From Antedon mediterranea (Eukaryota; Animalia; Echinodermata): 64,000 bases of DNA. Numbering within the stretch: position 1 is the stretch's first letter; the number at the start of each line of letters is the position of its first letter. A program made the position numbers and the translations under genes. The stretch spans positions 13,578,001 to 13,642,000 of the forward strand of contig NC_092674.1 in assembly GCF_964355755.1 (NCBI RefSeq), in the 5' to 3' direction. The notes beneath the pieces were generated by a model that ran no database searches, was not told where the DNA came from, and was given only the letters and a program-made list of their open reading frames with translations. Positions 8,422 through 60,934 of the stretch are shown here, one piece after another.

Positions 8422-8520
8422 TTTCTCATAAAGATCCAATTTAGCACCTGCCTTGAGCAAAATAGTGCAAACATCTGTGTGACCGTTTTGTGCAGCCACA
8501 TATAAAGGTGACATTCCATC
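8422..8520 (-). CDS. Ankyrin-repeat exon E5: DGMSPLYVAAQNGHTDVCTILLKAGAKLDLYEK
   Basis: 99 bp, canonical splice sites; lies within ORF 8380..8595. Confidence 0.92.
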
Positions 8521-11136
8521 CTGAAATATTACAAACATTATGTTATAGTATTTTCTCTCTCTAAACAAAGAATTATAATATTGTCCTAAAATCAATACGA
8601 TGTGATCAATTAAAAATGACGTTATAGATTTAAATAATGCTACATTGTTAAATTTAATAAAGAGTATTAAGCCTTTTCTTTAAGATAATGTATTGTATAC
8701 GTATACATTTTTCTTTCTTGTATAACAATGTTTTATAGTGCTTTATAAATGTATAAAACAATTATAAATAAGTGTGTTTTTTTGCCTGAAAAGTAAACAC
8801 TTCATCCGGTATTGCTAACTAGTCCGAGTGTAAATTATGATAAAGTGACCTTTGAACTGGCAGTTACAGTTTAAAATATATCTAGGCTCCAAATTCTGTT
8901 CAGGTAACACATTTTGACTGCTAAATTCTTACTATTGGTTTAATGTTACCGTTACTCTTGGAGGAGATATATGTCTTTTTTAAATGTTTTATAAAATCAA
9001 ATAGTGTCCCATATCGTATCTTTATATCCATTTATTGTATCATTTTGCATAAAATACAGTGTTGCTCTACAGCACAATACAATGCAAAAACAAAAAACTG
9101 AAAAAAACACGACACGTCATTCTCTAACATCCAGTGCCCTAAAGGCATATGGTATTACAATGATGACGGAATCTATTACGAGAGGTGATGGACCTTTTCT
9201 TTGAACGTCAAGATAGTGCATTGGATATGTTGGGTCTTGCAAAATTGAAAGTGTTTTCTCAGTAAAGTCTCTTATAAAAATGAATCAAATTGAGATCTGC
9301 TTAATTATAAGTACTGTAGTCCTATACGTGAAGCATAACTAAACATACGTTCCAGCTAATTCTTACATGTGGTCCGGGTAAACTATAAAACAATGAATAA
9401 TGAGAATTCTTTCAAGGACAGATTTATACAAAAACAAGACGTACATGCCTAATGGGAGGGTTAACTCCAAAATATTTGGATTTTTTACGCAAAGGTAAAG
9501 CCTATTTGATATTAGGTTATTTTTTTTTTCTGGGTTACTGTATGGGTTGAAAATACTGTATGAGTTGAAAATACTGTATGGGTTAAAAAAGGTCGTAAGA
9601 TGTTAGTTTATTAGTATAGAGTACTGCAAACCATAATAGTAGGTAACATTTGTAATTGAGGGCGTTTTATTTGACACGACAAAGCATGTGAACTCCCCAA
9701 AAACGTACCGTATCATAATGTAGTATATTTTAAATTTTGACTAAACATTGAAAGGTCTTTCTAACAGATTTTATTCTCGGGGTACTCGGATGTTGTACTT
9801 AATTATTGTTTTATTTATTGTAATCCGCCATGTTCTTTATATCTTTACATATAGATTGTATATTGCTTTTAATAAGCCGTGCGGAGGATTCAGGTATTTT
9901 CTCTTAGTATTAAAGGGTAACACCGCGGCTTTAAAATGTATATTACTTGTTATAAACTATAAACCTTTTAATCAACATTGGTAATAACCCTGCCTAATTT
10001 TAGACAGCACTCAGGCAAAAGCTAAGTAGCTTCTTTAATAAAAGAAGTTCTATAAGACAATACCACAGTACACGTGTGAAGTTGAACTAATTCGCCTTTA
10101 AAAATATCATAATTTAACTAAACTTTTTAAATATCTGATAATTAGAGCTGTGCGCGCGTGCAAATTAAATGTTTATTTACTAAAGCTAACATTATGTTTC
10201 CTATTCGAGAAACGATGTTGTTATAGGGACCACACTAAGTAGTTTGTGTAACTTCATACTAACGATATGTTGAAACATTATGTTAATTTTTTTTTCTTTT
10301 ACATAGACCTCATATGCGATGATTTGAAATTCAGATAATTTTAGTATTGATATTATGTTACTGAGGTGTAGTAGTATGCTACATACAATGTGGATTGTTG
10401 AACATTTTAATTTATTGATGATGAAAATTATATTATTATTGTAACCGAATTTGTCATGATATACGATGAATTTAAATCAGTTTTTGCATCATGTTATAGT
10501 AGTATTATATTTAATTGTAACTGAATTAACATTGTTAAAGTTTTATAGAATACTGGTAAAATACTGGTAAGTAATGTCCCACACTCCACACTAAACTTGG
10601 CCATGTATTTAGTACTGAACATTGTATTACATTGACAAGTCAGAATGTTATAATGTACTTGGTATGGAAACTATACTAAATGACCAAATAGTGACATACA
10701 CTTTTGTCAAATCATTTCCTGTTTTGAATCGTTGGATAGATTTAAACTATGAAAGTATTTTAACAATAATATTGTTTTTACATTATACGTATGATGTAGT
10801 AATTCTTTGTTTGTCAAGTAATGGTAAATGTATAATTTGTATAGTGTCCCATATCGTATCTTTATGAACGCGTTATAATTTGTATTCTGTTCTGGTTCAC
10901 TATGTGTAAAAGTGAAGATCAAAATAATTAAAATGTTTGACTTAATCGTGATGTTTAAAATTATAATCATGAATAAATTGTCTCAATGATAATATTTAGA
11001 GTAATATTTTCTTTATTTTATATGTCATTTGACCCAAGCCTAAATATGAAAGCATTCTTTAGAAAATAAATAGTAGGCCTACATAATCAGAATTTGGATA
11101 TTGGTATAATAGGAATAATTTAATGACTTTCTCTCT

Positions 11137-12163
11137 TTGAACTGTGGTCATAAATTGCCTATTCTAACAGCGGCGTGTGAAAATAAAGCGGGTATGCCTG
11201 TGTGGAAAGGTTTAGTAGACAATAATATTACCGAAGTTTTGCGTGACTCTGGGTGTAGTAGTGTCGTGGTGAAACGATCCTTTGTGAAATCGGAACAACT
11301 AGCGGGAGAATTTAGTACGTGTGTATTGATAGATGGAACTGTAAGGCGTTTTCCTATAGCTAATATTAATATTAATACTCCATTTTTGTCAGGACCGGTA
11401 AAGGCGAGTTGTATGGAAAACCCTGTGTTTGGATTAATTATTGGAAACGTTACAGGGGTAATGGATCCGAATGATCCTGAAGAAAATTGGGCCCTTAATA
11501 ACGGTAGAAGAAAAGAGAATAAAATGTCGTTAATCAATGATATCGAAAATGCAGAACCATCCGGTGCCATGATGACTAGAAGCCAGCACAATTCCGTGAG
11601 AAAACACCTTAAACAATTAAAAGTAGCTACTCCTATACCAATTGATGTGACTCATGAACGATTAATTGAAGACCAGTATAATGATTTTACATTGGGGAAA
11701 GTTAGAGATTTGGCCAAAAAGGGGAGATAAACAAATGACTAGAAATGGAAATTACTTTTAATACATATTTAGTGACGGAATTTCGTGGAGAGAGTTGTTG
11801 TCTCCTAAGGTGGAATTCGGTAATTTAGTAAGACAAGTAGTTGTTCCTAAAACTCTTAGAGGAGTAGTTTTGCAGTGGGCCCATGAATCTGTATTAGGTG
11901 GTCACCTCGGTGTTAAGAAAATCACTGACAACATTTTAACAATTTTTTTTGGCCTGGGTTGCAATCCGATGTAAGTAGATTTTGCCAGTTGTGCGACATA
12001 TGACAGCAAACCGTATCTAAAGGAAGGGTCCTTAAAGTACCATTGGGCAAAATACCTACAATCGAGGAACCGTTCGAAAGAGTAGGTGTAGATTTAGTAG
12101 GGCCAATTAAACCCATGACAAAAAGGGGACATCGATATATGTTGGTGTTGATAGATTATGCGA
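11137..12163 (+). mobile_element. Degenerate Gypsy fragment with protease directly followed by integrase (Gmr1-like order)
   Basis: LRDSGCSSVVV protease motif, then HESVLGGHLG, FFWPG, PFERVGVDLVGP and LVLIDYAT integrase motifs with stops and frameshifts; no RT between them; no LTRs seen. Confidence 0.78.
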
Positions 12164-14209
12164 CAAAAAAAAACAAACAAAAACAGCTATTTTGTGGAGG
12201 TTTTTTCAATGTAACTTTCTTATAAATTGACCGATTTTTATGGCTGTTTCGACATTGTAATGCCTAATTGAGTACCTACAATGTCATGTTATTTTTAATT
12301 GTTAAAATAACTTTAAACGTCGTCGGCATTGATTTTTAAAGTTAGACGATTTGAAAATTGTGTTAAAGAATAGGCTTGTTTTGTCAATTTGTACATAAAC
12401 GTTTATAACGTTTGACCTAGTTATCCAATGATATTGGCTGTTCCACCATGCAAAAGCTAATCAATCAATCACGAAATGTAAGAGTTATTATCCCTTATTT
12501 TTAATATGTTAAATGTATTTAAGATTAAGGTACAGGATTCTTTATATAAGTAGTTTTAAAACACTTGGTTTATTTGAAAATCACCAGCGTGGCTTTGCCG
12601 TATTGGTGGACTCGTCCATTTTACTAATATGAATAGGATTGTAGCACATTTATATAAAACGTTGAATTTGACCTATACGGTTTCCATTTCTGTTTTCTAA
12701 TGTAAAATTAAAATTATATTATTAGTATCTCTATGTAATATAATCACATTGTACTATACTAGTTAGCATCTACATACCGTTATACTGCACTTTGTTTTGA
12801 TGATTTTTTAATGAAATTGTATACACAGGGAGTTGGTATACCATTGGTTCTACTAAAATTATTATTACTTTTATTTGTTTGTGCAATATTTGAAGATTGC
12901 TACACAAATAGAAATAATTTAAATATAATATATTTAACAGATTAAGTGTACGCACTATGCCTATGGAACAGATTACATATCGGACGTAGTTTAGTATGAC
13001 ACATCTGATATTCTATTATTATAATTATTTTGTTTTATTTATTGTAATGCGCCGTGCTCTTTATATCTTTGATTGTATATTGTTTTTCAATAAGCGTGCG
13101 GAGGATTCAGGTAATTTCTCTTAGTATTAAAGCGTAACACCGCGGCTTTAAAATGTATATTGCTTATTATAAAATATAAACCTTTTAATCAACATTGGTA
13201 TAACCGTCCCTAATTTTAGACAGCACTCAGGCAAAAGTTTAGTAGCTTCTTTAAAAAAAAGTTGTTCTATAAGACAATACTACAGTCTGTACGCGTGTGA
13301 AGTGGAACTAATTCGCCTTTAAATACTAGTTTTAAAATATCATATTTAATTAACCTTTTAAATAGCTGATAATCAAAGATGTGCGCGCGTGCAAATTAAC
13401 AATAGAAATTAATATTTATTTACAGAAGCTAACATTATGTTTTCTATTCAAAAAACGTTGTTGTTATGGAACACAGTAAGTGATGGTGTAACTTCACACT
13501 AACGATATATTGAAACATTATATTAATTAGTCTCCTTTACATAGACCTTGGTCATATGCGATGATTTGAAATTCAGATAATTTTAGTATTGATATTATGT
13601 TACTGAGGTGTAGTAGTCTGCTACATGCAATGTGGATTGTTAAACATTTTAATTTATTGATGATACAAAGTACATTATTATTGTAATCGAATTAGTCATG
13701 ATATACGATGAATTTAAATCAGTGTTTGCATAATGTTATGAGGTATAGTGGTATTATATTATTATTGTAACCGAATTAACATTTTTAATGTTTTATAGAA
13801 TACAAATACTGGTACGTAATGTCCGACACTCCACACTAAACATGACCATGCATTTAATACTAAACATTGTATTACATTACATGTCAGAATGTTATGACTT
13901 ACTTTGTATCGAAACTATACTGAATGACCAAAAGAAGACATAGACTGTTGTCAAATCATATCATTAATCATTATCAATCATATTAGACCCAACCCTAAGT
14001 AATATGAAAGCAATATTTAGAAAATAAATATTATATCTATAATCCGAATGTGGATATTGGTATTGTAATATATTCATATTAGCAATTTAACGACTGGATT
14101 GGAGACTAATAAAGAAGTTCTACAAGATGGCTGAACATTAGCACATGGTCTGATTTCTTAGTGAAATACTTAGTGTAATCATTCATTCCCAGAGCACAAT
14201 ATACAACAT

Positions 14210-14219
14210 TGGCGACGAG
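14210..14219 (+). promoter_or_regulatory. Primer-binding site, complementary to the tRNA-Ser(GCT) 3' end
   Basis: TGGCGACGAG one base after the 5' LTR; tRNA assignment from recalled tRNA-Ser 3' sequence CTCGTCGCCA. Confidence 0.7.
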
Positions 14220-14263
14220 AATTGTGGATAAGTGAACTCCGTGAATATTATAAGTAAGCAATA

Positions 14264-17200
14264 ATGTCTAAATTTGACATATCGGTGGAGTATTTTGATC
14301 CAACCATACAAGAATGGGCGAGATGGATCGCCAGGTTTGATAACTACTTGGTGGCGGCGAACGTGACTGCTGACGTAAGGAAGAGAGCACTACTGCTACA
14401 CTTCATTGGCCCTGGTAACTTTAACACATTTGAAATGCTACCAAATAAAGGTACGACATACGTACAGGCAAAAGAAGCTTTAAAAAATTACTTCTTACCA
14501 TCATCGGACAGTGAATTTGAAAGATCGAAATTTAGAAAGTTACAGCAAAATAAAGGTGAGAGCATTGACGTGTATCACATTAGACTACGTGAACAAGCTA
14601 AGTGTGATTTCCATGATATCAGTGGAGAGATTAAATCACATATTATTCAATCGACAACAGATTCTAAGCTAAGACAATTTGGTTTGAAAACGGGTGGATG
14701 TACATTAGATGAGTTACTTCTACATGGTAGGACAAATGAACTAACAACTAAACAATCTAATGAAATGGAGAACGGTGATAATACTAGTAGTAGTATGCCT
14801 AGTCGTAGTGGCGAGACTAAGGCAGATCATTCAGTTAATAAAATAACTCAAGCGAAGCAATGTAATAAGTGTGGTTCTACACCAGGCCATACCGCTTCAC
14901 AGTGTCCAGCTAGCAATAGAATATGCTATCGTTGTTCAAGAGTAGGACATTACGCAACACAGTGTTATTCAAAGAGTAGGCCTACACACAAGAGAAATTC
15001 TTCACGTGGTAGAAACAACCAGCGACATAACGACCAAAGTTCACGCGGTGGTAATAGAAGACGCGGTAATCAAACAGGAAGAGCACGAGCTAAACGTGTC
15101 AATCAAACAGAACGAGGGTTCTCAGATGATAGCGACAGTGATCATTCAATGTTTGTATTAAGTAATAATAAGATAGATAGAAGTCATTTCAAAACCATTT
15201 TAAACGTAAATGATGTTAATCTTGAAATGCTAATTGATACTCAAGCTGATGATACTATAATGTCTATTGATACCTACAACAAATATTTTAGTCATATTAA
15301 CATTGACCCAGATGTTATTCCTCTTAAAACATACAGTGGTGAGAAACTTAAGTTAATTGGAAAAATTAAGTGTAAAGTTGTTGACAAACAAAATGTCATA
15401 CACTATCTGAGTGCTAACGTAGCTGACTATAAAGCTAAACCGACTTTACTTGGTGTAGATTGGCTTAATGTGGTTAAACTAGACTGGTCAAAAATAACCC
15501 AAAACTTAAATTCCAGAAATGTAAATAGTCTGCAAAAATATAAAGGTGTAAATTTGAGAGATAATTCTCAGTTACAGGCATTGTTAAAAGAACATGCACA
15601 ATTGTTTGAGTCTGATAAGAAAGGTATTACAGGAGAAAAAGTTCATATTAACATGAAACAAAATGTTCAACCCATATATTGTAAAGCTAGATTTGTACCA
15701 TATGCAATGAAATCTAAAGTAGAAAGAGAGTTGGTTAGATTAGAAAATGAACATGTACTAACGAAAGTAGAAAAATCAAATCGGGCATCAACTATAGTAG
15801 TGGTTCCTAAATCCGACGGTACTGTTAGAATTTGTGGGGACTATAGTGTTACCATAAACCAACATGTAACAGATGAAGAATACAGCTTACCCAGTCCTGA
15901 TGATTTGTACTCTGAACTTTCAGGAAAACGTGTATTTACAAAGCTTGACTTATCACATGCGTACACACAGTTGAATATTGACGAAGAGAGTAAAGAGTTT
16001 GTAACTATAAACACACACAAAGGTCTATATACGTTTAACAAACTGCCGTATGGAATTAAACCTGCATCAAAGCTGTTCCAAAAACAAATGGATAAGATGT
16101 TAACAGGGATTGAATGTTGCTTATGCAATCAAGATGATGTTTTGATCCATACGAAAACCGAAGCCGAGAACTTAAGAGTATTAGACACTGTATTTAAACG
16201 TTTCAAAGACAACAATGTAAAACTAAAAACTTCCAAGTGCAAATTTTTGGAAAGCGAAGTAGTGTATTTGGGATTGCGAGTCGATAAACATGGTATATCT
16301 CCGGTTGATAGCAAAATCAAACCGATTAAAGAGGCTCCGCAGCCACAAAACACCAAACAACTAAGATCCTTCCTAGGGATGGTGCAGTTCTATTCGAAAT
16401 TCTTACAGAACTTATCTACAGTGTTGAAACCATTAAATACACTGTTGAAAGATGACGTAGAGTGGGAATGGACAGCGGATCACCAAAACGCATTTGACTG
16501 GTGTAAGAAACAACTAACTTCAGATTTGTGTTTAACACATTATGATGTAAAGCGACCATTAATGTTGTGTACTGATGCTAGTCCTTATGGCATAGGTGCT
16601 GTTATTTCGCACATAATGGATGATAGTACAGAGAGACCCATTCATTACGCATCGCGAACGCTAACAAAGAGTGAACAAGGTTATGCACAGCTCGAGAAGG
16701 AAGCGTTATCAATTATTTATGGAATCAAGCGCTTTAACAAGTATCTTATAGGTCGAAAATTTACGATTCGTACGGACCACAAACCATTAACTAAGATACT
16801 AGGTCCAACCACCGAGGTGCCGGTAGTGGCAGCTAGTAGAATCCAACGGTGGGCGTTACTACTTAACGAATACAACTACGAAATAGAATACATACGTTCA
16901 GAGGATAACGCAGTGGCAGACGCATTATCGCGCTTACCACATAAAGAAGAAACCCAACAACTTGAACATGCGATCTACAGTATCAGTATTGATGAAGACT
17001 TTCCAATCAAAGCAGATGAAATTGAACGAAAGACTATTAAAGATGAAACTTTAAGTAAGGTACTTAATTATATAAAGCAAGGATGGCCTAATGAGTCTGC
17101 ATGTAAATTCTAAGTGAAAATAATAGTTTGAAACCATTTGTACAGAGAAAGCTTGAGCTAACATGTGTTGGAAATTGCCTATTATGGGGTCCTAGAGTTA

Positions 17201-18177
17201 TTATTCCTACTGAATTACGAGATAAAATGCTAACAGAATTACATTGGGAACACCCTGGAATTTGCCAGATGAAGGCAATTGCCCGATCATACCTGTGGTG
17301 GCCTAAGCTTGATCTAGATATTGAGAATATGGTTAAGAGTTGTAATCCATGCCAAAGTGTTAGGAGTAGTTTACCTACCACACCACTTATTCCTTGGAAA
17401 TGGCCAACTAGACCATTCCAGAGAATTCACATTGATTTTTGTGAGAAGGATAAAGATAATTTCTTAGTGTTAATTGATAGTCACTCAAAGTGGTTAGAGG
17501 TAGTTCATATGAAAACAACCACAAGTACTAGAACCATTGAGGAACTAAAACTAATATTTGCACGTTTCGGTTTACCCGAGGAAATTGTTTGTGATAACGG
17601 TCCTCAGTTTGCAAGTACAGACTTTAAAATATTTTGCCAAAATAATGGTATTGCATTAACGTTTTCACCTGTTTATCATGCACCCACAAATGGGGCTGCC
17701 GATAGATCGGTTAGAGTAATTAAAGAGGCGTTAACAAAACAAGTGATTGAAGGCAAAAAGGATAATATCAAAGTTAGACTAGCTAACTTTTTATTCAGAT
17801 ACAGAATGACACCTCATACAACTACTAAGTGTACACCATCTGAATTATTTCTGAAAAGAAATTTAAGAACAAGACTGTCATTAGTAAATCCTAGTTTAGC
17901 AGAACGAATAGAATGTAAACAATATAGCCAAAAACTACATAAAGATCCTAAAACACAATCAGAAAGAATCTTTTCAGTGTCAGACAAGGTAAAAGTGAAA
18001 AACATGAGAACACAAGGTAAAGGACAAGATAAATGGCTAAATGGCATAGTAATAAAGGTATTAGGTCCAAGAAAGTATGAAGTTAAAATAGGACGATTGG
18101 TTAAAATAATACATCCTAATCACATGATGTTGGATACCACATCTGATGTAAAGAGAGAGAAAGAAAAAGGGAAATAA
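14264..18177 (+). pseudogene. Gypsy gag-pol, frameshifted between RNase H and integrase
   Basis: ORFs 14264..17113 and 17128..18177 are in different frames; motifs DTQA, NQDD, TDAS, HWEH..C..C, DNGPQF. Confidence 0.85.
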
Positions 18178-21100
18178 GATGTAATCATTATATAGTTAAT
18201 TTGAATCTAGAAGATATTGTTTTTGGTATATGCATTATGTTTATTGTTACTTAGTTTTAGAATGTTATGTTAGATAGCCATACTATAATCAATACCTGTA
18301 TCACTTGACTCAATTTAAAAGAAGGAAGTAATGTAATATATTCATATTAGCAATTTAACGACTGGATTGGAGACTAATAAAGGAGTTCTACAAGATGGCT
18401 GAACATTAGCACATGGTCTGATTTCTTAGTGAAATACTTAGTGTAATCATTCATTCCCAGAGCACAATATACAACAGGTATAATATGAATAATTAAACGA
18501 CTTTCTCTCTGGGCTTCCGAATTAAGTGAAGTAGACATTATTTTATTATGACGTACATTAGTAACGTTTTACCGCTACTTTTAATGAAGATAATCATGTA
18601 ACTACTAATCACCAGATGTAAACAACAAACGCAGCGCACCAGAGGCCGTTTGGATCCGACGAAGAGGAACCCAACCCATCAACAGAGACGAAGGCGCCCA
18701 TCAGACACGTGAATGAACCTGTCATTTCTTCTGAAAGATCTGTCCGAGCAGGACAGCGAAATTCCCAAGCAGGTTAGTTTCACTAATTGTTTTTTTTTCC
18801 GAAAATAATTAATACATTTCACATGCCGTATCGTTACATAAAATGCAGAGTGTACATAATCTCCGCGAAGCCATATTAGTTATGTCATTAACATGCATAC
18901 TAGTCTAGGACAAATATCTGAAAAGAGGCCTAGAAATCAAGATAATAATAATAATATTAATAAGATAGGGGAAGTGGAATGCTACAGGCAGCCAACATAG
19001 CCAAATATTCTATTTAATCTCTTCTGATCACTCTAAGCTTTGTTGACACAATGTTTTGCCTAGACTATAGTCGTCTTATACTAATACCGGTACGTGTAAT
19101 TTTCACATGATATTACGCTTTTCCGCTAGACAACATCGACCAAAAATCTCATCCCCTCCCCTTAAAACTCATGTCTACTATTCTGTTGTACCATGATACC
19201 ATGATACATTTCAACAAACATTCTTGTTTTGAAGATGTCGATATCTTGTCACCTCTGCTTATCATTACTGTCTCAAAATAATCCACGTCAACATTGGCAA
19301 ATGGTGGGGTACCGCATGTTTTGACTTATTTTTCTCTTTTCCTTTATATTTAACTAGCAATTATACCCGCCCCAAGCCGGGTTTCAAAATTAGTTTAAAG
19401 CCTTCTCTGTACATAACACCCGACGCCAGTATCTCCGTATACGCACCAACCTCCACCCCTTAATAACACCCCACACTCTTTCCAGTGAAGGACAAATTCA
19501 ATTAAACTTTAGCTTCAAATTGAGAGGGCATACATAATAGCTATGATAGGCATATGGCTTAAGTACGTTGTAAACTATGTAAATGAGTAGGTGTTATATT
19601 GGCTGATAATTAAAATATATAATGTTGATACTGCGGTCCCCCGGTCTTCTTTCTCCTCTTACCATCGCAGCCGCAATTAACAAACCTTATCTCCTCCCCT
19701 GGACAGTTCAAATATAGGCCTAGTAAGTTTTCGTAGTACAATTCAATCATATAGGCCTAGGCTACTTCATTACGCCAGTATTTTCGCTCCTCTTCCCAAC
19801 CCACCCCAGAAACCGGGTAATGTTTTTAAGACGGTTCCAGTACAAATTATTTTAGCCATCACACCCAACCCATAATCCCTCAGTGGCAGTTTTCAAATGT
19901 AGTTTAAAACATTCCCAGTTTCGGTCATGGTGATAGGCCAACATCCCCACCCAAAAATCCCAGCCGTTTCCCAGGAATAATTAAATACTGTAACATTTTC
20001 CCTCCACAATTCTGGTCAATTTGATAGGCTACTATTCTTAGCCTAAGCAAAATCCCCACTATCCCCAACGCGATTTTTTTTTCGTACATAAGTTGGGGAC
20101 CCCCTCATGAAACGTCACAATATAAACATGAATAATTCATCAGTTAAATTTTCTTGCTCCGTGTGCACCCAAGCGTATAAAAGAATAGCGGCGTTTTGTG
20201 TGGAATTTTGAAATAATCTGTCATTAGTTTTTTTTTTTTTTTAATAGAATTTATTACTAAAGAATTACGTGTTAAAATTATAGTTTCTATTAATACTATT
20301 AGGCCTAATCATTAGTCTCGAAAATGCCGGTCAGATATACAAAAAAAGTTACAAGGAATAAATTAGCAATTGTCAACTGCATACTCATCCATCAAACTAG
20401 CCGCCATCGAGAAAATATTCAATTCCATGAATCTTATGAGGGTTATTTTTTTAGGAACAATAGTACTTGTTTTATTTGTTTTGGCAATTAATGCAATTAA
20501 AGCGTAATTAATTCGTCTTATTCCATTTGGAATACTACGTCCTGTAAAATGAATGTAGAATGTTCAGATTTGTTAATTTAAAATTATATTATAATACAGA
20601 ATTGTATATTATTTCAAATGTTCTGGTGGCTTCCATGCATGCGGCTTTTAGCCTTAATGGAAGTCCTTTTGTATATATTTTGCTTTGTATTTTTTTTTTA
20701 TGGATGAAATAAACTGACTTGTGTGACTGGTATCTCGCCGCCTTTCCACGTATCATTTTATCGCATTCCATCATATTACTATTGAAACCGAATTTAAACA
20801 TTTTAACAAGCTTTTTGTGATGGTCACAAAATGCTAAGATACATTAAAAGAACGCTCATCGCCAGATCTATGTATAGTAATCAGAAATATTCAAACAAAA
20901 ATGATGTTGTTGTGACGTCGTTGGTGGGTGTTAGTAGGTGTGGCGGCGTTCATTCGGGGAGGCATTTGTTGGTAACATTTTGTAATAAAATAGATTCCCC
21001 TAGATATGAACAAGTACAACACCGTATTTGATATTATCAAGAAGTGATAACAGCTAAAAGTTGTATGAAAATGCTTGGTAAATAAATATGATATAGCAGT

Positions 21101-22316: not shown

Positions 22317-22790
22317 TCACAGATTTCCTCATCTTTATCGTTTCAAATTAATTAATTAAATTTCAGTATATCACCGGGCGGTTTAGAATTACTGTTCATT
22401 GCCTAATGTGTTTATATATATAAAAGTATCTCTTCGGAGATCCCGCCTCGTGAATAAAAATACTGAAAGATGAGGGCGTATCAATTTGATCTCTGTTGCG
22501 CGTGCGTACAACTGAGGACTAGTGCTGTTCCGCCGTACCACGCCGAGAATGTTAAAGAGTCGCTATCCAATCGAGTTTGAACAATACCATGAAAGCCCCA
22601 GTAGTCTAATGGCTAGGACATCTGCATATCAAGCAGGCGGTCCGAGTTCGAGTCTCGGTTGGGGCGACTTTTTCTCATTCTCACAGATTTCCTCATCTTT
22701 ATCGTTTCAAATTAATTAATTAAATTTCAGTATATCACCGGGCGGTTTCGAATTACTGTTCATTGCCTAATGTGTTTATATATATATATA
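22317..22790. mobile_element. Non-autonomous element with about 105-bp direct repeats in a (TA)n tract, enclosing a tRNA-like gene
   Basis: 22317-22422 and 22681-22786 identical except one base; both ends abut TA microsatellite. Confidence 0.75.
22595..22666 (+). tRNA. tRNA-like gene with complete cloverleaf, anticodon ATC (nominally Asp); probably repeat-borne
   Basis: Acceptor GCCCCAG/TTGGGGC, D stem GTCT/GGAC, anticodon stem TCTGC/GCAGG with loop ATATCAA, T arm CCGAG-TTCGAGT-CTCGG; T5 terminator at 22669-22673. Confidence 0.7.
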
Positions 22791-24083: not shown

Positions 24084-24182
24084 ATTCGTCTGAAGATCCA
24101 AATTAGCACCTGCCTTGAGCAAAATAGTGCAAACATCCGTTAGCCCGTTTAGTGCAGCCACATATAAAGGTGACGTTCCATT
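24084..24182 (-). CDS. Ankyrin-repeat exon E4: NGTSPLYVAALNGLTDVCTILLKAGANLDLQTN
   Basis: Hand-translated (not in ORF track); 99 bp, cag/gtaagt, open frame. Confidence 0.9.
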
Positions 24183-24964
24183 CTGAAATATTACAAACAT
24201 TATGTTATAGTATTTTTTACTCTAAACAAAGTATTATAATATTGTCCTGCAATCAATACGATGTAATCAATTAAAAATAACGTTATAGATTTAAATAATC
24301 CTAATAATAGAGGGCTAAAATCACGCATTATGGCTATGCACGATATTTTTTGGCGTTCCAGATAATTGTATTTTATTGTTTACGTGTTTTAATATTATTT
24401 ATGATTTTCAGACAAATTTTAAAAGCTTATATGCATGAAAATAGTCATCGTCTAAATCAAATGTCAACTGTATACGTGAAGCATAATTTTATTGGATTGT
24501 TGTATTGTACTGTATTATATTGTTAAAACAATACATTTCAGTTTCAACTTATCCTTACATACATAAACTTGGTTCTTAATTGATATGACAATCCTTATTG
24601 CAGCTTAAAAGAAGCTATACTGGTATTGAGCGCAGTAACATCTGACAAACGGCGGGCTTTGATAACTGCTGTAAAATCAAGAGGGGCTAAATTTGAACCA
24701 GAACACTGGCTTAACCCGATATTAATCACGAAAGATGCCCTGGATTATTTATCATCATGTTTTAAATCAGATGTAATTAGAATTTTATAAACCTCAGCTT
24801 CATCCCTATTTCTAGATAAATGCCATTCATACTCATTGAGAGTTGGCTGGTTTATTTAGCAGAAACCAGATATCCTTTAACTTGCATCAGCTTAAACTTA
24901 TTATAGTTTGACCAAAATTATGCAAAAATCCCTCCTACTCCCCTTGGGAGTTTTCTGCCGCTAG

Positions 24965-25489
24965 TTAGACCTCCTCCAAGGCAATTATTGTTATTGATTA
25001 TACGAATTACGTAATTAGTTAGCTTAGCAATGATCTATGCCTCAAAAGCTCGGACGAGTTAGAATTTTGAGGGGAAAGGTCATAGGTCAATGTCACAACT
25101 AACAAAAAACTATTTTACTGCCTAGAGACCACAGTTGTTATCCAATTCTCACTAAATTTAGCCACAATGATCAATGATTCATCATATAATTGTGGTTAAA
25201 TTTTGAAGAGTCAGGGTCAAAGATCAAGGTCCACAAAAAACAACAAAAAAAGAAATAAAAAAAATAATAAAAAAAAAACCTCGGTGGGACTTCAACTGTG
25301 AGAGGCTGGATACATAATCAATACACCAAACTTTCATCCACAACTTTGCAGTGTGCAGTTAGCCTATTTACACTTAGAACTAATAAAAAAAAATTAAAAA
25401 AAAATATATATATATATTTTCCAGAGACATTTTATGTAGGGGAATGTTACAGTAGGCGGAGGTTTGTACTCTCAGAGTACCCTCTAGTT
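24965..25489 (+). mobile_element. Helentron-type non-autonomous element (HINE/pearl-like); paralogous copy at 30152-30668
   Basis: Subterminal inverted repeat acctcctcc / ggcggaggt, 3' hairpin gtactctcagagtac, ends ctagtt; internal ggtcaaggtca motifs. Confidence 0.6.
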
Positions 25490-25601
25490 GGAACTGTTAT
25501 TTGTAATAGTACAGGCCTAATTTAAATGCAGAAGCTCACATTAAGTTTACGTCGTTGTACCATTGTTTCCTGATAATTGGAATGTAATCAGTTTTTATTA
25601 A

Positions 25602-44667: not shown

Positions 44668-47600
44668 TGTGTTGCTCCTATTTTAGCTGCATCGTTCCTT
44701 TCCGAGAGAGGGCGTATGTAAATAGGATCCATGTTATAAGTTTCGCATTGACTACATGTGTTCTAGAGTTCGGTTTCTAAATGTCTTATTGTGCCGAGAT
44801 AGTGTGTAATTTACTAAACTAGTAGGCCGCACATTGCTTGTAAGTTGTTAGAGTATTATATTACAATAATTAGAATTATATGAACCACAGTAGTGGCCTA
44901 GATTATTAATGCTATACTGCATTGTGGTCGTAGGCCTAGGCCTGCGTAGATTGAATCGTATACGATCGCTCGAACAGCATGGCGATAAACACGAGTCTCC
45001 CTGTAGAGGGCGGTGTTCTATTTTGTATGCCATATCTATAGAAGTAGTCACGTCCGTATGAGGGCGCTGTTGATTATTTGATGACTTTGTTTAATATGTT
45101 CTTTAGGCATGTACACCTCCGTAAGAGGGCGCTACGTTTGATCTGTTTTGCAGATAGTTTTATATTTATGTTATGTATATTATTACTATTTGGAGCTGGA
45201 TTTAAGTATGCTTAATTTCAGTTCACCCTGTTTATGGCTGAATTTGCTGTATTAAAGAGTCAGTCAACAAGTGATTGTGTTGCAGTATTTTTTGTCGTGG
45301 ATTGGGTTTATCTACTGAATAGCGAGTTTGACGGTTCAAGCTCGTGAGGTCAGCACAGTGAAAAGCAATGTCGACTTCTAGTAGAAGACGTGATGGTGCG
45401 AGAGATGATGCAAGGTCAATAGGGTCAAGGAGCCATAGATCGAAGGCATCATCGCAGTCGGTGTCATCATTGGAAGTATCTGCTGCACAAGCTCGTGCTG
45501 ATGCTGCTGTAGCGAAAGCTCGTGTTACATTTGCGAAGAAGAAGTGTGCCGCTAAGTTAGAGGCGTTGAAGGCTGAAATGGAAGCAGCTAAAGCTATGTT
45601 AGACATAGACGAAGTAGAGAAAGAAGAAGAAATGGCTGCAGCACAGGCTAGAGCCAATGTCCTTCAAGCAGAATTGCAACATATGTCTTTTGAAGATATT
45701 GAGGAAGAGCTTTCACAGTTAGAAAGCAATAATCAGATGGAAGAGGTGCAAGGCGCACCCCAAGATGCAGTACCCAGTCAAAGAATGGCAGAGGTGCTTA
45801 ACGAACTTCCAAAGATGGAACCCAGTCAGCGGGTAGAAAATTATCTAAACAATGCTGTAGAGGTACCAACGTCTACTCTTAATCCTGGAGCTAGATCTTA
45901 CGAACCAAATCATATGCAGGAGTACATTCGAATACTGGCACGTCAGCGATTACCCTTGCAAGAACCGGATATTTATTCTGGGGATCCAATAATGTTTCTT
46001 CCGTGGAAAAGATCCTTTGAAGCTATGGTGAAAACAGCCTGTGTGGACACTGTTGAAAAGCTGTCATTCCTGTGCAAATATACTACTGGCGAAGCAAAAG
46101 TTTTGGTTGATCGATTCAGACTAAGGCATGTTGAAGATGTTGACAAGGCCTATCATGAGGCCTGGACTGAGCTAGAAGACAGGTTCGGGAACCAAACCTT
46201 AATATCAGCTGAAATCATCCTGAGACTTACCGAATACAGAAGATTCAAAGCAGGTGATTTGACCGCACTCCAAGAACTGGCTGATTTGTGTGGAGACGCA
46301 GTTGCTCAAATGCAGGAGCTACCCCATCTGATTATGTTAAACACTCCTCATGGTATTAAACCAATTGTAGAGAAGTTACCACACTTCATAATTAATAAAT
46401 GGAGAGAAAAGGTCGCAAAACATAAAAGGAAAATGAAAACGTTCCCGAATTTCAGCATTTTCACAGAGTTTCTAAGTGAGATGGCTCACATCCAACGTGA
46501 TCCTGATGTCCCAAGAGGAATTGTTGATGAGGTCAAAACTGATACACCGGGAAACTACCGTACACAGACAGGTTACCGTCCTAAGACCACGCAACGTTCA
46601 ACTGTAAATGTGAGAATGACTGAGGTGAATAAATCTGAAGGGATGTGTCCGCTACACAATGGTCAGCATCCGTTGGTAGACTGTAGAAACTTTCTGGCCA
46701 AGACTTATGCTGCCAAGAAGTCATTCCTTAAGGAAAACCAAGTATGTTTCCGATGTCTCTCATCTACATCACACATGGCTAGGAATTGTGATAGAAATGT
46801 CAGGTGTGGAGAATGCGGTAGTGATCGTCACCCGACTGCATTCCATGGTGACCGTCCGCAGAAGGCGAATGGCGGGGAACAAGTAAAAGCGGAGCAAAAG
46901 GCAAATGGCGGGGAGCAAGTAAAAATGGAGCAAAATGCGAAAGGTGAGAAGGCAAATGGCGGGGAGCAGGGGACAGAGTCGCAGAAGACGAAGGAAAGAG
47001 ACAAAGTAGTAAGTACTACATGTACGGATGTCTGCGGTGGAATTGGGCTGAGCCGATCGTGTGCTAAAATTTGTTTAGCAAAAATATATTTAGAAGACCA
47101 TCCTAACACTTTCATAAAAACCTACATTATACTAGACGACCAAAGCAATCGCTCGTTGGCCAAGAGTGAGGTATTCGACCTTTTTAACATCAATGCAAGA
47201 CTTACGTCGTATACTTTGAAGACCTGTTCGGGAGCGGCTGAAGTTCAAGGCCGAAAACTGGAGAAGCTAATAATTGAGTCCATGGATGGTAAAACAAGAA
47301 TAGCAGCCCCATCGCTACTTGAATGTAATGACATACCTGGGAACAAGGCAGAAATTTCCACTCCAGAGACAGCCAGCAATTTTCCTCACTTGAAGGATAT
47401 TGCGGACAAGATACCACCCTTGGATGAGAATGCAAATATTACCATACTGCTGGGCCGAGATGCTGCTCAAGCTCATAAAGTCCGAGAAGTACGCAATGGA
47501 CCAAATCACTCTCCATGGGGCCAACGACTTGATCTAGGCTGGATGGTTATTGGCGACGTCTGCTTAAGGGGAGCCCACCAAAAAAATGTTGTCACCGCCA

Positions 47601-50600
47601 ACAGAAACCATATAAAGGTTTTGAGAAATGGTAGGCCATCCGCCATGTTTACAACTTGTAAAGGAATGATCAGTGCGAAGGAAATAACCCTGCAACGCGG
47701 CTGTGACGTACTCGGTGGTAATGTATTCCAACAGAAAGAAGATGACGAGAAGTATGGAATGTCCAAAGAAGATGTGGAGTTCGTGCAACTTATGGGAAAA
47801 GAGATGAAACGAGGTGAACAAGGAAATTGGATAGCCCCACTTCCTTTTCGAGAAGAAAGAAAAAGGTTACCCAACAACAAGCAGCAAGCAATGAATCGTA
47901 TGCAGTCTCTTATTCGCACACTGGATAAGAAGCCAGAGATGAAAGCTCACTACTTAGCGTTCATGGAGAAAGTATTCTCAAAGCAACATGCTGAGCTCGT
48001 CGAAGATGACAGTCATGATGAAGAGTGCTGGTATTTACCACACTTTGGTGTGTACCATCCACAAAAGCCAGGGAAGATCCGGGTGGTTTTTGATTCCAGT
48101 GCGCAATTCCAAGATACATCACTTAACAACGTGTTAATGAGTGGACCAGATCTGGTAAATGGGTTGCTTGGTGTATTGATACGGTTCAGGCAGGATACTG
48201 TGGCGTTTGTAGCAGACATTGAGCAAATGTTCTACTCATTTCAAGTCGTGGAAGAACACAGAGATTATCTTCGGTTCCTGTGGTTCGAAGACAACGACCC
48301 CAGCAAAGTATTGAGAACGTATCGGATGAAAGTTCACATCTTCGGAAACAAACCTTCTCCAGCTGTTGCTACGCTGGGACTGAGAAAGACTGCACAAGAA
48401 GGAGAGAGCGAGTTTGGCGCAGATGCAAGAGAGTTCGTGGAGAAGAATTTTTATGTCGATGATGGGCTGAAGTCTTTAGCTACTTCAGATGAGGCGATCG
48501 ACCTGCTCCAGCGCACACAAGCCATGTTAGCCACAGCTAATTTACGATTACATAAAATTGTCTCAAACGATGCAAAAGTGATAGCGGCTTTCTCACCTCA
48601 AGATGTAGCAAGTAACATGTGCAACCTCGATCTCGGATCTGACGCTCCTCTTACGCAAAGGTCATTAGGGGTACTGTGGGATGTCAAGTCAGATGCCTTT
48701 ACTTTCTCTATTACGGAGGTTAGCAGCAAGGCATTCACTAAGCGAGGAGTGCTGTCAGAAATCAACAGCATATATGACCCAATCGGCTTTGCGTCACCCG
48801 TCATTATAGAGGGAAGAAGGCTGTTAAGGGAAATGACAAAGGATCAATGCATAGATTGGGATGAGCCATTACCGAAACAGCTACATGATTCATGTCAGAA
48901 GTGGCGAAGCTCCATAGTTCAACTGTCAGATGTTCTGATTCCTCGTCCTTATACATCATTTCCATCAAACCAGTCCATCCAGAGAGAACTCCACACATTC
49001 TCCGATGCTTCTAACACAGCCATTGGCGCTGTGTCTTACCTCAGAATTACTGATAAAGTGGGAGAAGTTCACTTAAGTTTTGTTGTTGGAAAGGCAAAGC
49101 TAGCACCTAAAGCTGCGACATCAATACCACGGTTAGAGTTGTGCGGAGCAGTACTTGGCGCAGTAGTTGCAAAATGTGTTAAGACTGAATTGGATTTTAA
49201 GTTGGATGCCACACATTTTTACACCGATAGCAAGGTCGTTCTCGGTTATATCACAAATAAAACCCGTAGGTTCTACATGTACGTGGCAAACAGAGTGGAT
49301 CAGATTCCTCAGTCGACCAAACCAGAACAATGGAAATATGTTAAAACAGACATAAACCCAGCCGATCAAGCTACAAGATCCATCAAGGCTAAAGACTTAC
49401 AGAACTCAGCATGGATTCAAGGACCAAGATTCCTACTTAATAAGAACTCGTGTGAGAGAAACACAACGGTCTGTGACATCAGTGAAATTGAAGAGGATCC
49501 CGAAGTAAGACCTGTCGTAGCTACCAGTGCTACAGAAGTTCAGTCAGCCAAATCACTGGGATCCGAGCGATTTAGCAGATTTTCGAATTGGGGAAATCTT
49601 GTGCGAGCAATTGGAAGTCTTGTGCATATTGCTTGTACATTCACAGAAACCAGGAAAAGAGACTATATCCCTACACTTCAGAACAGAAGCAAGTGGCAAC
49701 ATGAAAAGAGGAATATAAAGGAAGGAGATATTGTTCTTCTAAAGGAGAAAGACACCGTCAGAAATGATTGGCCTTTGGGACGAATCGTTAAAGCAATTGA
49801 CGGATCAGACGGACGAGTTAGGAGAGTGGAAGTGACTGTTTATAGAGGTGGAGAACTGAAAACCTTTGCAAGACCGATTAGTGAATTGGTACTGATAATG
49901 CCGACTCCTGTTACATTGAACATTATTATAATGAATATTATGTCATATTCCTTTGTTATTTGTTTATTTTTTTAACTTTTTGATATGAATGGTATCCTTT
50001 AGATACCAGACGGGGAGTGTGTTGCTCCTATTTTAGCTGCATCGTTCCTTTCCGAGAGAGGGCGTATGTAAATAGGATCCATGTTATAAGTTTCGCATTG
50101 ACTACATGTGTTCTAGAGTTCGGCTTCTAAATGTCTTATTGTGCCGAGATAGTGTGTAATTTACTAAACTAGTAGGCCGCACATTGCTTGTAAGTTGTTA
50201 GAGTATTATATTACAATAATTAGAATTATATGAACCACAGTAGTGGCCTAGATTATTAATGCTATACTGCATTGTGGTTGTAGGCCTAGGCCTGCGTAGA
50301 TTGAATCGTATACGATCGCTCGAACAGCATGGCGATAAACACGAGTCTCCCTGTAGAGGGCGGTGTTCTATTTTGTATGCCATATCTATAGAAGTAGTCA
50401 CGTCCGTATGAGGGCGCTGTTGATTATTTGATGACTTTGTTTAATATGTTCTTTAGGCATGTACACCTCCGTAAGAGGGCGCTACGTTTGATCTGTTTTG
50501 CAGATAGTTTTATATTTCTATTTGGAGCTGGATTTAAGTATGCTTAATTTCAGTTCACCCTGTTTATGGCTGAATTTGCTGTATTAAAGAGTCAGTCAAC

Positions 50601-50689
50601 AAGTGATTGTGTTGCAGTATTTTTTGTCGTGGATTGGGTTTATCTACTGAATAGCGAGTTTGACGGTTCAAGCTCGTGAGGTCAGCACA
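44668..50689 (+). mobile_element. BEL/Pao LTR retrotransposon with integrase core deleted
   Basis: TG..CA LTRs 44668-45357 (690 bp) and 50018-50689 (672 bp), differing by an 18-bp indel and two substitutions seen; ATTAC TSD; PPT agacggggag; empty site at about 28037. Confidence 0.96.
45368..49975 (+). CDS. BEL/Pao polyprotein (gag with three Cys/His knuckles, PR, RT, RNase H, C-terminal tail); integrase missing
   Basis: 1535-aa open frame; LDDQS, WYLPH, KIRVVFD, FYVDD, YDPIG, HTFSDAS, IPRLEL, NPADQATR, WPLGRI. Confidence 0.92.
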   Translation: MSTSSRRRDGARDDARSIGSRSHRSKASSQSVSSLEVSAAQARADAAVAKARVTFAKKKCAAKLEALKAEMEAAKAMLDIDEVEKEEEMAAAQARANVLQAELQHMSFEDIEEELSQLESNNQMEEVQGAPQDAVPSQRMAEVLNELPKMEPSQRVENYLNNAVEVPTSTLNPGARSYEPNHMQEYIRILARQRLPLQEPDIYSGDPIMFLPWKRSFEAMVKTACVDTVEKLSFLCKYTTGEAKVLVDRFRLRHVEDVDKAYHEAWTELEDRFGNQTLISAEIILRLTEYRRFKAGDLTALQELADLCGDAVAQMQELPHLIMLNTPHGIKPIVEKLPHFIINKWREKVAKHKRKMKTFPNFSIFTEFLSEMAHIQRDPDVPRGIVDEVKTDTPGNYRTQTGYRPKTTQRSTVNVRMTEVNKSEGMCPLHNGQHPLVDCRNFLAKTYAAKKSFLKENQVCFRCLSSTSHMARNCDRNVRCGECGSDRHPTAFHGDRPQKANGGEQVKAEQKANGGEQVKMEQNAKGEKANGGEQGTESQKTKERDKVVSTTCTDVCGGIGLSRSCAKICLAKIYLEDHPNTFIKTYIILDDQSNRSLAKSEVFDLFNINARLTSYTLKTCSGAAEVQGRKLEKLIIESMDGKTRIAAPSLLECNDIPGNKAEISTPETASNFPHLKDIADKIPPLDENANITILLGRDAAQAHKVREVRNGPNHSPWGQRLDLGWMVIGDVCLRGAHQKNVVTANRNHIKVLRNGRPSAMFTTCKGMISAKEITLQRGCDVLGGNVFQQKEDDEKYGMSKEDVEFVQLMGKEMKRGEQGNWIAPLPFREERKRLPNNKQQAMNRMQSLIRTLDKKPEMKAHYLAFMEKVFSKQHAELVEDDSHDEECWYLPHFGVYHPQKPGKIRVVFDSSAQFQDTSLNNVLMSGPDLVNGLLGVLIRFRQDTVAFVADIEQMFYSFQVVEEHRDYLRFLWFEDNDPSKVLRTYRMKVHIFGNKPSPAVATLGLRKTAQEGESEFGADAREFVEKNFYVDDGLKSLATSDEAIDLLQRTQAMLATANLRLHKIVSNDAKVIAAFSPQDVASNMCNLDLGSDAPLTQRSLGVLWDVKSDAFTFSITEVSSKAFTKRGVLSEINSIYDPIGFASPVIIEGRRLLREMTKDQCIDWDEPLPKQLHDSCQKWRSSIVQLSDVLIPRPYTSFPSNQSIQRELHTFSDASNTAIGAVSYLRITDKVGEVHLSFVVGKAKLAPKAATSIPRLELCGAVLGAVVAKCVKTELDFKLDATHFYTDSKVVLGYITNKTRRFYMYVANRVDQIPQSTKPEQWKYVKTDINPADQATRSIKAKDLQNSAWIQGPRFLLNKNSCERNTTVCDISEIEEDPEVRPVVATSATEVQSAKSLGSERFSRFSNWGNLVRAIGSLVHIACTFTETRKRDYIPTLQNRSKWQHEKRNIKEGDIVLLKEKDTVRNDWPLGRIVKAIDGSDGRVRRVEVTVYRGGELKTFARPISELVLIMPTPVTLNIIIMNIMSYSFVICLFF

Positions 50690-51932: not shown

Positions 51933-52031
51933 TTTGGCTTGAAGATCCAATTTAGCACCTTCCTTGAGCAAAATAGTGCAAACATCTGTTTGGCCGTTTT
52001 GTGCAGCCAAATGTAAAGGTGACCACCCATC
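51933..52031 (-). CDS. Ankyrin-repeat exon E2: DGWSPLHLAAQNGQTDVCTILLKEGAKLDLQAK
   Basis: 99 bp, canonical splice sites, ankyrin consensus; lies within ORF 51867..52049. Confidence 0.92.
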
Positions 52032-54544: not shown

Positions 54545-55183
54545 AGTTCACTATGTCTGTCGGTCTGTCGGTCCGGTATCACTATGCGTTTTATCGCTTT
54601 CAGACCTTATCTTGATATCAGTTCAATCTAGCTAGGTCAATTTTTCACAGTATATTCCTTATGGCCAGGAATCGATGTGGTTATGTTTTCACGGTGCGCA
54701 ATAAAAAATTACGCGGTCTACGCACGATTTAACGAAATCACGTTTGTAATCATATCTTCACAACCATGAATCACAATTAAATAAAATTTGGTACTCATAA
54801 ATTTCAGGGCATAAATCATCATATGGCAATACAATTACGCGTTAAATGTTATTGCGCACCCTTTTTGCCCGATTTATGTTTTCTTGACTTACTTTTCAAC
54901 TCGAAATTACGTTATACGAGCACGTCAAAAGTAACAGGCTACGCACGTGGAAATTAAAAAATATAAATGTTTTTAAACATTTCAACATTTTTAAACATGT
55001 TCAATAATTTCGGTCAGTATAGTTCACTATGTCGGTCGGTCGGTCGGTCGGTCTGTCTGTCTGTCTGTCTGTCTGTCGGTCTGTCGGTCTGTCGGTCTGT
55101 CTGTCGGTCGGTCTGTCGGTCTGTCTGGCGGTCCGGTATCACTATGCATTGTAGCACGCGACTTAATGGCTGTTGGCCTTGTT
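54545..55183 (-). mobile_element. DINE-1/HINE-like Helentron-derived element, truncated
   Basis: Reverse complement of the 58797-59609 family with (GACA/GACC)n microsatellite. Confidence 0.75.
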
Positions 55184-58796: not shown

Positions 58797-59609
58797 AACA
58801 AGTCCAACAGCCATTAAGTCGCGTGCTACAATGCATAGTGATACCGGACCGACAGACAAACAGACCGACAGACAGACAGACCGACAGACAGACGGACCGA
58901 CCGACATAGTGAACTATACTGACCGAAATTACTGAACATGTTTAAAAATGTTGAAATGTTTAAAAACATTTATATTTTTTTAATTTACACGTGCGTAGCC
59001 TGTCACTTTTGACGTGCTCGTATAACGTAATTTCGAGTTGAAAAGTAAGTCAAGAAAACAGAAATCGGGCAAAAAGAGTGCGCAATAACATTTAACGCGC
59101 AGTGCGCGCGCAAAAATCTGCGCACTCATGGCAATTTTGTAAACGCTTAAAATTGCCTGAAACGTACTCTTATTTCATCGAAAATAAATTTTGAAAATTT
59201 TAGGCGCGCGTACGCATGTGTTACATGCGCTACGCACGTAATTGTATTGCCATATGATGATTTATGCCCTGAAATTTATGAGTACCAAATTTTATTTAAT
59301 TGTGATTCATGGTTGTTAAGATATGATTACAAACGTGATTTCGTTAAATCGTGCGTAGACCGCGTAATTTTTTATTGCGCACCGTGAAATCATAACCACA
59401 TCGATTCCTGGCCATAAGGAATATTCTGTGAAAAATTGATTTAGCTAGATTAAACTGATATCAAGATAAGGTCATAAAGCGATAAAACGCATAGTGATAC
59501 CGGACCGACAGACAGACAGACCGACAGACAGACCGACAGACCGACAGACAGACATACAGACAGACCGACCGACCGACATAGTGAACTATAGAGTCGCTTC
59601 CACGCGACT
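58797..59609 (+). mobile_element. DINE-1/HINE-like Helentron-derived element
   Basis: Subterminal IR agtcgcgtg / cacgcgact, terminal hairpin agtcgcttccacgcgact, (GACA)n microsatellites, inserted in an A-tract. Confidence 0.78.
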
Positions 59610-60835
59610 AAAAAGTTAGGTTGTGCACAACGAATGAATAAAGTGAACGGTACCAAGTAAGATGTGTTGTGTATTTATATTCTAAGCATAACAATATAAG
59701 CACTTTATTACTTGTCTCGCTGTTTGCGTTTTTTCACGTTCGAACACGGTATCGTTGACCTAAACGCAACTCTATTACTGTTCGCCGAGTGTCGCATTGA
59801 TTGCAACACACTGCGTTGATTGCAAGGTAGCGAACGCCGCCAAGATAATGTAATGTATATTTGCGCAAAGTTGATACAAGTCAGTCTGTGGAGCACATGC
59901 CAAGGAAGTTAATAATTAATCTTTTCTTTGTTGTTTTAACCTTTTGAATTTATAAATTACATTCAATTATCGTACGAAGGAAGACAAATTAAATCCACCA
60001 CTTTTAAACAAGCTGATTTGAGCAGAGGCAAATCCTAAATTATCAATTTTTTAGGGAATTAAACCCGACAAATCGTTTTAAAACTGGTGTTTTAACATGT
60101 GTGTGGTTACATTATAAAATGATAGTTGGAATTGAACCGACTACATTTTCGTCGCAACAGTGATTATTCAACTACCGTAATTGTTGTAAAGAGAGAGGGT
60201 GCGAAATTGTTAGATTAGCTTTTTGCACTTGCCATCCTCTCTTCCTTGTTCTTCTAATTCATTTATTCGTTTTAAAAATTAACAAAAAAACATTTTTTGT
60301 TTAGTTCACGCAAGTTTTACCATTGAAATCTTACCTTTTAATGTATATCTCAATTATAACAATTTTATATATGTTTTTTTTTTACAAAATTGCTTCAATC
60401 GAGTTAATTTTTTTACTGAACCTTTTGAATTGGCGAGTTATGAATGTTTGCATACCGTATGTTGTACCGCGATGGTAAGACTCTCATAAAAATTAATAAT
60501 ATTACAAGTAATAAATATTAATTTATAAGGATTAAACAATTTATTACAAAGTGTGACATCAATATTGTTAAAAAACCTTGGTTAATCTGACTTTCCAATG
60601 TCAAGATTAACCATGACGAGGCAGCAGTGTTCCGAACCATGTGAGGGATACAACCGTGCAGTTCTCGACAATTTAGTCATCCTCGCCACAAAAAATGGTC
60701 TGTAATATGACCCGCGATGATCTTGCTTCATTTAAGTATGTTATTATTTGCACGCCCTTTAAATTGCAAAATTAAACACTTTTTTAAATCACACTGAATT
60801 ATATAGCACATATTATTTATGTGTGTAATACTTAC

Positions 60836-60934
60836 TTTGGTCTGAAGATCCAATTTAGCACCTTCCTTGAGCAAAATGGAGCAAACATCTGTGTGGCCGT
60901 TTTCTGCAGCCCCATATAAAGGTGACGCTCCATT
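60836..60934 (-). CDS. Ankyrin-repeat exon E1: NGASPLYGAAENGHTDVCSILLKEGAKLDLQTK
   Basis: 99 bp between cag acceptor and gtaagt donor; matches ankyrin consensus G-x-T/S-P-L-H/Y-x-A-A-x-x-G-H...L-L-x-x-G-A. Confidence 0.92.

Follow-up and report, generated by a model that had tools for sequence, protein, structure and literature searches.

The closest described systems to the locus reported here are found in brown algae and fungi. In Ectocarpus and other brown algae, ROCO genes (with leucine-rich repeats) and NB-ARC-TPR genes are built from equal-length phase-0 exons of one repeat each, and two reports describe exon recombination, diversifying selection on the predicted ligand face and a proposed immune role (PMC3341825, PMC11378527). 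Fungal NLRs carry near-identical ankyrin repeats with positive selection and polymorphism on the inner helices and hairpin loops; the same paper gives the share of highly conserved repeats among metazoan ANK, TPR and WD repeats as 0.8% (PMC4986451). Here we report an array of five 99-bp ankyrin exons in the crinoid Antedon mediterranea, located in a stretch of 64,000 nucleotides (contig NC_092674.1, positions 13,578,001 to 13,642,000 of the forward strand). This whole stretch is the window, and all positions below are counted from its first letter. The pattern is one already published for fungi and brown algae; what is found here is the brown-algal exon design together with the fungal-NLR repeat type, in an echinoderm. 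We propose, with a probability of about 0.55, that the five exons are consecutive cassettes of one array that would form the target-sensing part of an intracellular innate-immune recognition protein.

In animals, lineage-specific expansions joining ankyrins to death-fold and STAND domains are described for sessile marine species (PMC8195603), and metazoan ankyrin repeat number changes easily (PMC5100051). No animal one-repeat-per-exon ankyrin array under positive selection was found in the titles and abstracts searched, with most subscription papers outside this coverage, and the literature searched yielded no ankyrin study in a crinoid. Introns often lie between ankyrin repeats, for example in human ANK1. 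If the receptor reading is true, the Antedon array would be an animal, ankyrin-based counterpart, in a crinoid, of the brown-algal exon-shuffled candidate immune receptors. The array also shows natural selection at work on the positions randomised by engineers of designed ankyrin repeat proteins (DARPins), plus codon 8 and the loop of codons 31-33.

Five single-repeat ankyrin exons on the minus strand

Scanning all six reading frames for the repeat motif, together with a search for splice sites, located five 99-bp ankyrin exons, each of them on the minus strand. In transcript order these are E1 (60836-60934), E2 (51933-52031), E3 (29263-29361), E4 (24084-24182) and E5 (8422-8520), the last in the window. 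Each of the five has an AG acceptor, a GT donor, phase 0 at both ends and no stop codon, and each passes the Pfam Ank (PF00023) cut-off of 21.1 bits, with scores of 26.5-38.3 bits. The five symmetric exons described in an earlier note on this DNA, made from the sequence alone, are therefore real by these measures. Mean identity between the repeats is 75% as protein. A general ankyrin profile and a DNA profile of exon plus flank were run over both strands of the 64-kb window, and neither found a further ankyrin exon, intact or decayed. Note that window positions 1-759 and 3183-4179 match intron sequence located 1.4-2.6 kb upstream of E2 and E5. If these pieces are collinear with the introns, a sixth exon could lie about 2 kb past the left window edge; alternatively, they could belong to a dispersed repeat.

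Successive equal-length phase-0 exons of one repeat each are a feature that the array shares with the brown-algal genes. It differs from them in its repeat type (ankyrin), its host (an animal), its introns of 5-23 kb and the absence of inverted or inactivated exons from the window introns on both strands of the 64 kb. Moreover, a ROC-COR or NB-ARC partner is a brown-algal feature, whereas the array here is known from repeat exons alone. Compared with the fungal NLR ankyrins, the repeats fall below the 85% working threshold given in PMC4986451, a long intron separates each repeat from the next, and no NACHT domain was seen in the window. A canonical ankyrin (ANK1-3) and a TRPN/TRPA channel were also considered and rejected because the repeats are homogenised; per-repeat scores against ankyrin-1/2 chains were at most 35 bits, while the exons themselves score 83-88 bits.

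The exon and its intron form a duplicated unit

Comparison of the flanks revealed that the duplicated unit is the exon together with its intron. About 120 nt upstream and 340 nt downstream are common to all five copies, and E1, E2 and E5 share further upstream sequence: the intron upstream of E1 (60935-63584, minus strand) is homologous in order to those upstream of E2 and E5, and in these far upstream blocks substitutions amount to 8.8-9.4% for the pairs E1/E2, E1/E5 and E2/E5. The introns E3-E4 (24183-29262, minus strand, 5080 nt) and E2-E3 (29362-51932, minus strand, 22571 nt) are two copies of one unit. Five collinear blocks with 87-94% identity to the longer intron cover nearly all of the shorter one, which the longer exceeds by three blocks of about 6.0, 0.45 and 11 kb containing transposons, a 5S rRNA copy and a satellite.

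Exon E3 has a hybrid make-up. It resembles E4 in its first codons and upstream flank (35 of 1606 flank sites differ from E4) and E2 in its 3' part and downstream flank (55 of 1159 flank sites differ from E2), and the informative sites switch from one type to the other between exon bases 32 and 71. Since the two sides have different affinities and the switch lies within the exon, E3 is what a single unequal crossover between E4 and E2 within the exon would be expected to produce. In this one case, growth of the array by unequal crossing-over is shown. Traceable recombination of exon units, here the duplicated intron and the hybrid E3, is a second feature in common with the brown-algal genes.

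The same duplication explains the silent sites. On average, pairs of copies diverge by 0.127 at silent positions of the exon, by 0.057 in the upstream intron and by 0.127 in the downstream intron, and the silent rate fitted in a codon model is 1.1 times the intron rate. Because the flanking intron was duplicated along with the exon, and silent divergence equals intron divergence, the silent-site identity of the scaffold codons is the mark of recent duplication and homogenisation and reflects no special constraint. This overturns the earlier note's view of the frozen silent sites as special. Its statement that silent variation is confined to codons 2, 13 and 15 also fails, since silent differences occur within codons 8, 19, 31 and 32 as well.

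Replacements concentrate on the predicted binding face

For the analysis of selection, a test set of six DARPin codons (1, 3, 11, 12, 31 and 33) was fixed in advance from the earlier note. The surface was mapped by alignment to DARPins; a lone 33-residue repeat does not fold usefully. Codons 1, 31 and 33 are variable positions of the DARPin consensus. At codons 3, 11, 12 and 24, the aligned residues vary from one solved DARPin repeat to another. As in DARPins (PMC8229355, PMC10542815), a constant framework carries variable residues on the concave face. Unlike DARPins, the Antedon array is natural and germline-encoded, its binding is predicted, and it also varies at positions 7, 8, 14 and 32. 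Classic DARPin design keeps these four positions fixed.

The residues previously listed at codons 1, 3, 7-8, 11-12, 14, 24 and 31-33 are correct, but that list omitted scaffold replacements at codons 19 (S/T), 27 (K/N) and 28 (L/F). As had been claimed, replacements concentrate at the DARPin positions and are not spread evenly: the six codons carry 9 of the 20 extra amino-acid states, a share matched by 0.65% of all six-codon sets. Pairs of copies have a replacement divergence of 0.309 at these codons; for the 23 codons that are not among the ten variable ones, the value is 0.035.

The codon model took the intron flanks as the neutral rate, with separate 5' and 3' trees. It gave an omega (dN/dS) of 5.2 for the six codons (p = 1.5e-5 against the intron rate) and of 4.8 when the silent rate was left free (p = 0.0013), in agreement with the predicted dN/dS above 1 at the DARPin positions in the five copies, a signal that is weaker without codons 3 and 31. 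Outside the ten variable codons, which were picked post hoc, scaffold omega is about 0.3. The signal persisted in three-copy subsets (five of the ten possible were fitted), with omega of 2.9-5.5 and p < 0.05 in 9 of 10 fits, and removal of any single codon of the six left p below 0.03. In neutral simulations, the probability of at least 9 extra states was 0.0002 on the fitted trees and 0.006-0.008 on a longer tree; doublet mutations, about 1% of intron events, did not change the outcome. The youngest pair, E3 and E4, has 5 differences in the first 45 exon bases (codons 1-15), 4 of which are replacements (p = 0.003 against the adjoining intron and p = 0.025 against the whole intron).

These results show, in the five copies and with support from the public runs described below, that the scaffold is under purifying selection and that replacement is accelerated at six pre-named codons of the predicted binding face. 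The rate of change on this face is about four to five times that of the adjoining intron. A third feature shared with the brown-algal genes is diversifying selection at ligand-facing positions, here with omega 4-5 and weak without codons 3 and 31.

Public sequencing runs contain further copies of the exon

The array stretch was matched in seven public runs, five from organism A and two from organism B, and five of the seven were compared in detail. Between 45 and 59 contigs per run fit a 116-base stretch over E2. The exon family is therefore larger than five copies, although contig depth gives no copy number. Loose contig ends add further residues at codons 1, 3, 7, 8 and 31-33 and include more divergent subtypes. 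The run variant table covers codons 8-24. In this region, codons 11-12 show 10 of their 16 possible replacement changes, compared with 11 of 34 for silent changes and 10 of 88 for scaffold replacements, and the test of codons 11-12 against silent changes in four runs gave per-run p values of 0.0007, 0.036, 0.021 and 0.030. For the 209 contigs aligned, no indel is listed inside the exon, and the 12 indels listed, out of 33, all fall in introns.

A different account of the same pattern dispenses with positive selection. Surface codons would be unconstrained and would receive short conversion tracts from distant copies, while flanks and scaffold are homogenised. In favour of this idea, pN/pS over the whole exon is about 1 (0.133/0.127), E3 is mosaic even within the exon, the runs hold the divergent subtypes just mentioned, and the selection signal leans on codons 3 and 31. 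However, conversion tracts should lift the neighbouring silent sites, yet the silent rate stays at 1.1 times that of the intron, and run X3 shows 8 of 16 changes at codons 11-12 but only 2 of 34 silent ones. We consider this account unlikely.

Run X5 bears on whether the exons are expressed. We presume that it is an RNA run, which is a guess; no matching run is recorded as RNA. One X5 contig has a joint 52030->51932 that goes back 99 nt, placing two family exons end to end. Four further in-frame junctions with a 99-nt period were found in X5 contigs that are too short to assign to genes. In addition, one contig equals 60848-60934 (87 nt of E1) with 0 differences and continues upstream into a different ankyrin-type exon outside the window; in another, a family exon is followed downstream by a different ankyrin-type exon. 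Because these contigs link family exons to other ankyrin exon types, the homogenised block is likely embedded in a longer ankyrin domain. Splicing of the cassette exons to one another is likewise supported, resting on the presumed RNA run.

These observations also bear on the possibility that no protein is made from the exons, either as dead copies or as passengers carried along by a repeated element. Every exon does lie within a repeated unit amid transposons, and no annotated protein with such a repeat was found even though Antedon proteins are in the searched collection. Against this stand the intact exons and splice sites in all five copies, the scaffold omega of about 0.3 with no exon indels, and X5 contigs in which exons are joined in frame at a 99-nt period and connected to ankyrin exons of other types. 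Dead copies thus seem very improbable to us.

A second sample, S2, contains 87 nt of E1 without a difference, in keeping with germline encoding. The term 'variable receptor' used previously holds in the sense of variation that evolves between germline copies. A more ambitious version would be a crinoid repertoire of ankyrin binders resembling Dscam or VLR, with dozens of in-frame single-repeat exons with hypervariable faces combined by skipping or recombination, so that each animal or each cell would have its own set of DARPin-like receptors; we regard such a repertoire as unlikely.

Look-alike arrays and possible protein partners

Searches for relatives covered several collections. The exact DNA scan of metagenome contigs gave 0 matches. 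Among the 80 of 220 metagenome loci that were kept, a protein-guided scan had a top full-length match of 64% identity, and the exon-plus-flank DNA profile gave 2 weak matches, to the exon only. No homologues were found among proteins of 22-72 residues, and the ESM Atlas returned generic ankyrin clusters only. The search of proteins of 73-2000 residues, which excluded those over 2000 residues, was followed through its best 120 of 373 matches, and a second search through 150 representatives out of 86,454 matches. A family member with three exact-type repeats would be expected at about 250 bits and would clear both list cut-offs, 209 and 206 bits. No relative closer than 21 of 33 residues was present among the 265 proteins from both collection searches.

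Homogeneous arrays turned out to be common: 50 of 267 fetched proteins with at least 8 repeats have a mean repeat identity of at least 0.6 (isoforms included). At an identity of at least 0.70 there are 21 look-alike arrays, 8 of which carry NACHT/STAND (nSTAND), ROC or death-fold domains. These domain partners bear on the Antedon array by analogy, not homology. A receptor function is plausible. A fixed scaffold is shared with the nSTAND3-ankyrin proteins of Mytilus and Crassostrea (P0004, P0005, P0008, P0024), the Macro-ankyrin proteins of Amphiura (P0001, P0131) and proteins of Macrostomum (P0002, P0157). In the two Mytilus proteins P0004 and P0005 and in P0166, the eight most variable positions are 1, 3, 7, 8, 11, 12, 32 and 33, the same variable-position set as in the Antedon array. 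However, these marine invertebrate arrays have at best 16-19 of 33 residues in common with the Antedon repeats and are therefore separate expansions. Homogeneous ankyrin arrays with variable faces were seen both in the mussel and oyster proteins (P0004, P0005, P0008, P0024) and in a 53-repeat mosquito protein (P0121).

The window itself adds no partner domain. No NACHT, NB-ARC or nSTAND domain was detected among the 11 long window open reading frames (ORFs) scanned, with the gene extending past the window, and the window yielded no exon for a NACHT, ROC, death or TIR domain. The previous proposal of a ligand-sensing receptor for immunity or allorecognition is consequently borne out in part. 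It is favoured by the faster replacement on the binding face, the run variants and the X5 exon joins, but the window holds no exon of these signalling types and no close protein relative was found. The likeness to fungal NLR and Ectocarpus genes, on which that proposal drew, is upheld by the literature comparison.

The same array under the same positive selection could instead be the substrate-binding part of an adaptor or enzyme, such as a ubiquitin-ligase adaptor, a Macro-domain protein or a kinase protein, chasing transposon, viral or self/non-self proteins. Among the look-alikes are kinase-ankyrin proteins, the two Macro-ankyrin proteins P0001 and P0131 from the brittle star Amphiura, and many arrays with no detected partner, and the Antedon introns are heavily invaded by retroelements. 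Yet no such domain is in the window either, and the repeats of Amphiura come no nearer than the rest (best 18 of 33). The cysteine shared at position 18 does not help: 24 of 263 proteins have it in half or more of their repeats, and it was rejected as a family marker. We hold an adaptor or enzyme to be possible, as a tentative second choice.

Our preferred reading, a recognition protein of innate immunity, would work as follows. The module is the 33-residue repeat encoded by one phase-0 exon within a duplicated exon-plus-intron unit, as seen in this array. Crossing-over inside the exon adds a repeat and creates a hybrid, as shown in one case, E3. Purifying selection holds the scaffold while codons 1, 3, 11, 12, 31 and 33 change at omega 4-5. 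From the ankyrin fold, these six codons are predicted to line the hairpin tips and inner helices, and stacked repeats would form one long groove with a changing surface. Molecules of parasites or pathogens would presumably drive these changes in an arms race, and a domain acting as effector or switch (STAND/NACHT, ROC, death fold, Macro or kinase) would lie outside the window. In-frame exon skipping may add variety at the transcript level.

Several points weigh against this reading. The sample is small (five exons, six codons), and removal of codons 3 and 31 together lowers omega to 2.4 (p = 0.11). A longer tree combined with a 1.5-fold rate brings the simulation to p = 0.05-0.08. Exon-limited gene conversion from more distant copies could inflate omega, and codon 8, no classic DARPin position, ranks among the most variable. 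When the runs are pooled, codons 11-12 versus silent changes give p = 0.066, and the four runs tested share variants and hence are not independent. The RNA status of X5 is only a guess. Moreover, no signalling domain and no ligand were seen for the array; of the 21 look-alikes, 12 have no credible partner domain and 1 has a kinase, and no close relative is among them (21 of 33 residues at best).

Mobile elements and other features of the introns

The introns hold retroelement ORFs of LINE, Gypsy, BEL/Pao and DIRS-like type, which fill much of them. The BEL/Pao element, a long terminal repeat (LTR) retrotransposon in intron E2-E3 (44668-50689), has an LTR pair that differs by 2 substitutions and one 18-nt gap. 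Because the LTRs are near-identical and a 5-bp target duplication flanks the element, its sequence indicates a recent insertion, later than the intron duplication. Over 1037 residues, the BEL/Pao ORF shares 98% identity with an Antedon mediterranea protein, whose cluster has 7 of 7 members from this species; the next named match, from another crinoid, is at 57%. By this match, the host is likely a feather star, either Antedon or a form close to it. Other elements are a LINE ORF (5484-8186, minus strand), a Gypsy element with short matching terminal pieces (14060-18476), a LINE with ORF1 and ORF2 (34317-38754) and fragments at 32110-33922 with weak matches, probably DIRS-like.

A complex satellite with nested periods of about 35, 90, 115, 205 and 323 bp occupies 39686-40912. 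A full-length 5S rRNA match (42841-42961, 71.3 bits) lies in a 450-bp block of intron E2-E3 that is absent from the sister intron E3-E4; this copy was perhaps retroposed or mobile. A tRNA-like gene with anticodon atc (22595-22666) is flanked by a pair of 106-bp direct repeats with 99% identity (22317-22422 and 22681-22786), perhaps a tRNA-derived insertion with an unusually long duplication. Finally, an element of about 650 bp with GACA microsatellite ends is present in three copies (54555-55183, 58797-59538 and 61663-62307), one of them inverted, whose best blocks are 95-97% identical.

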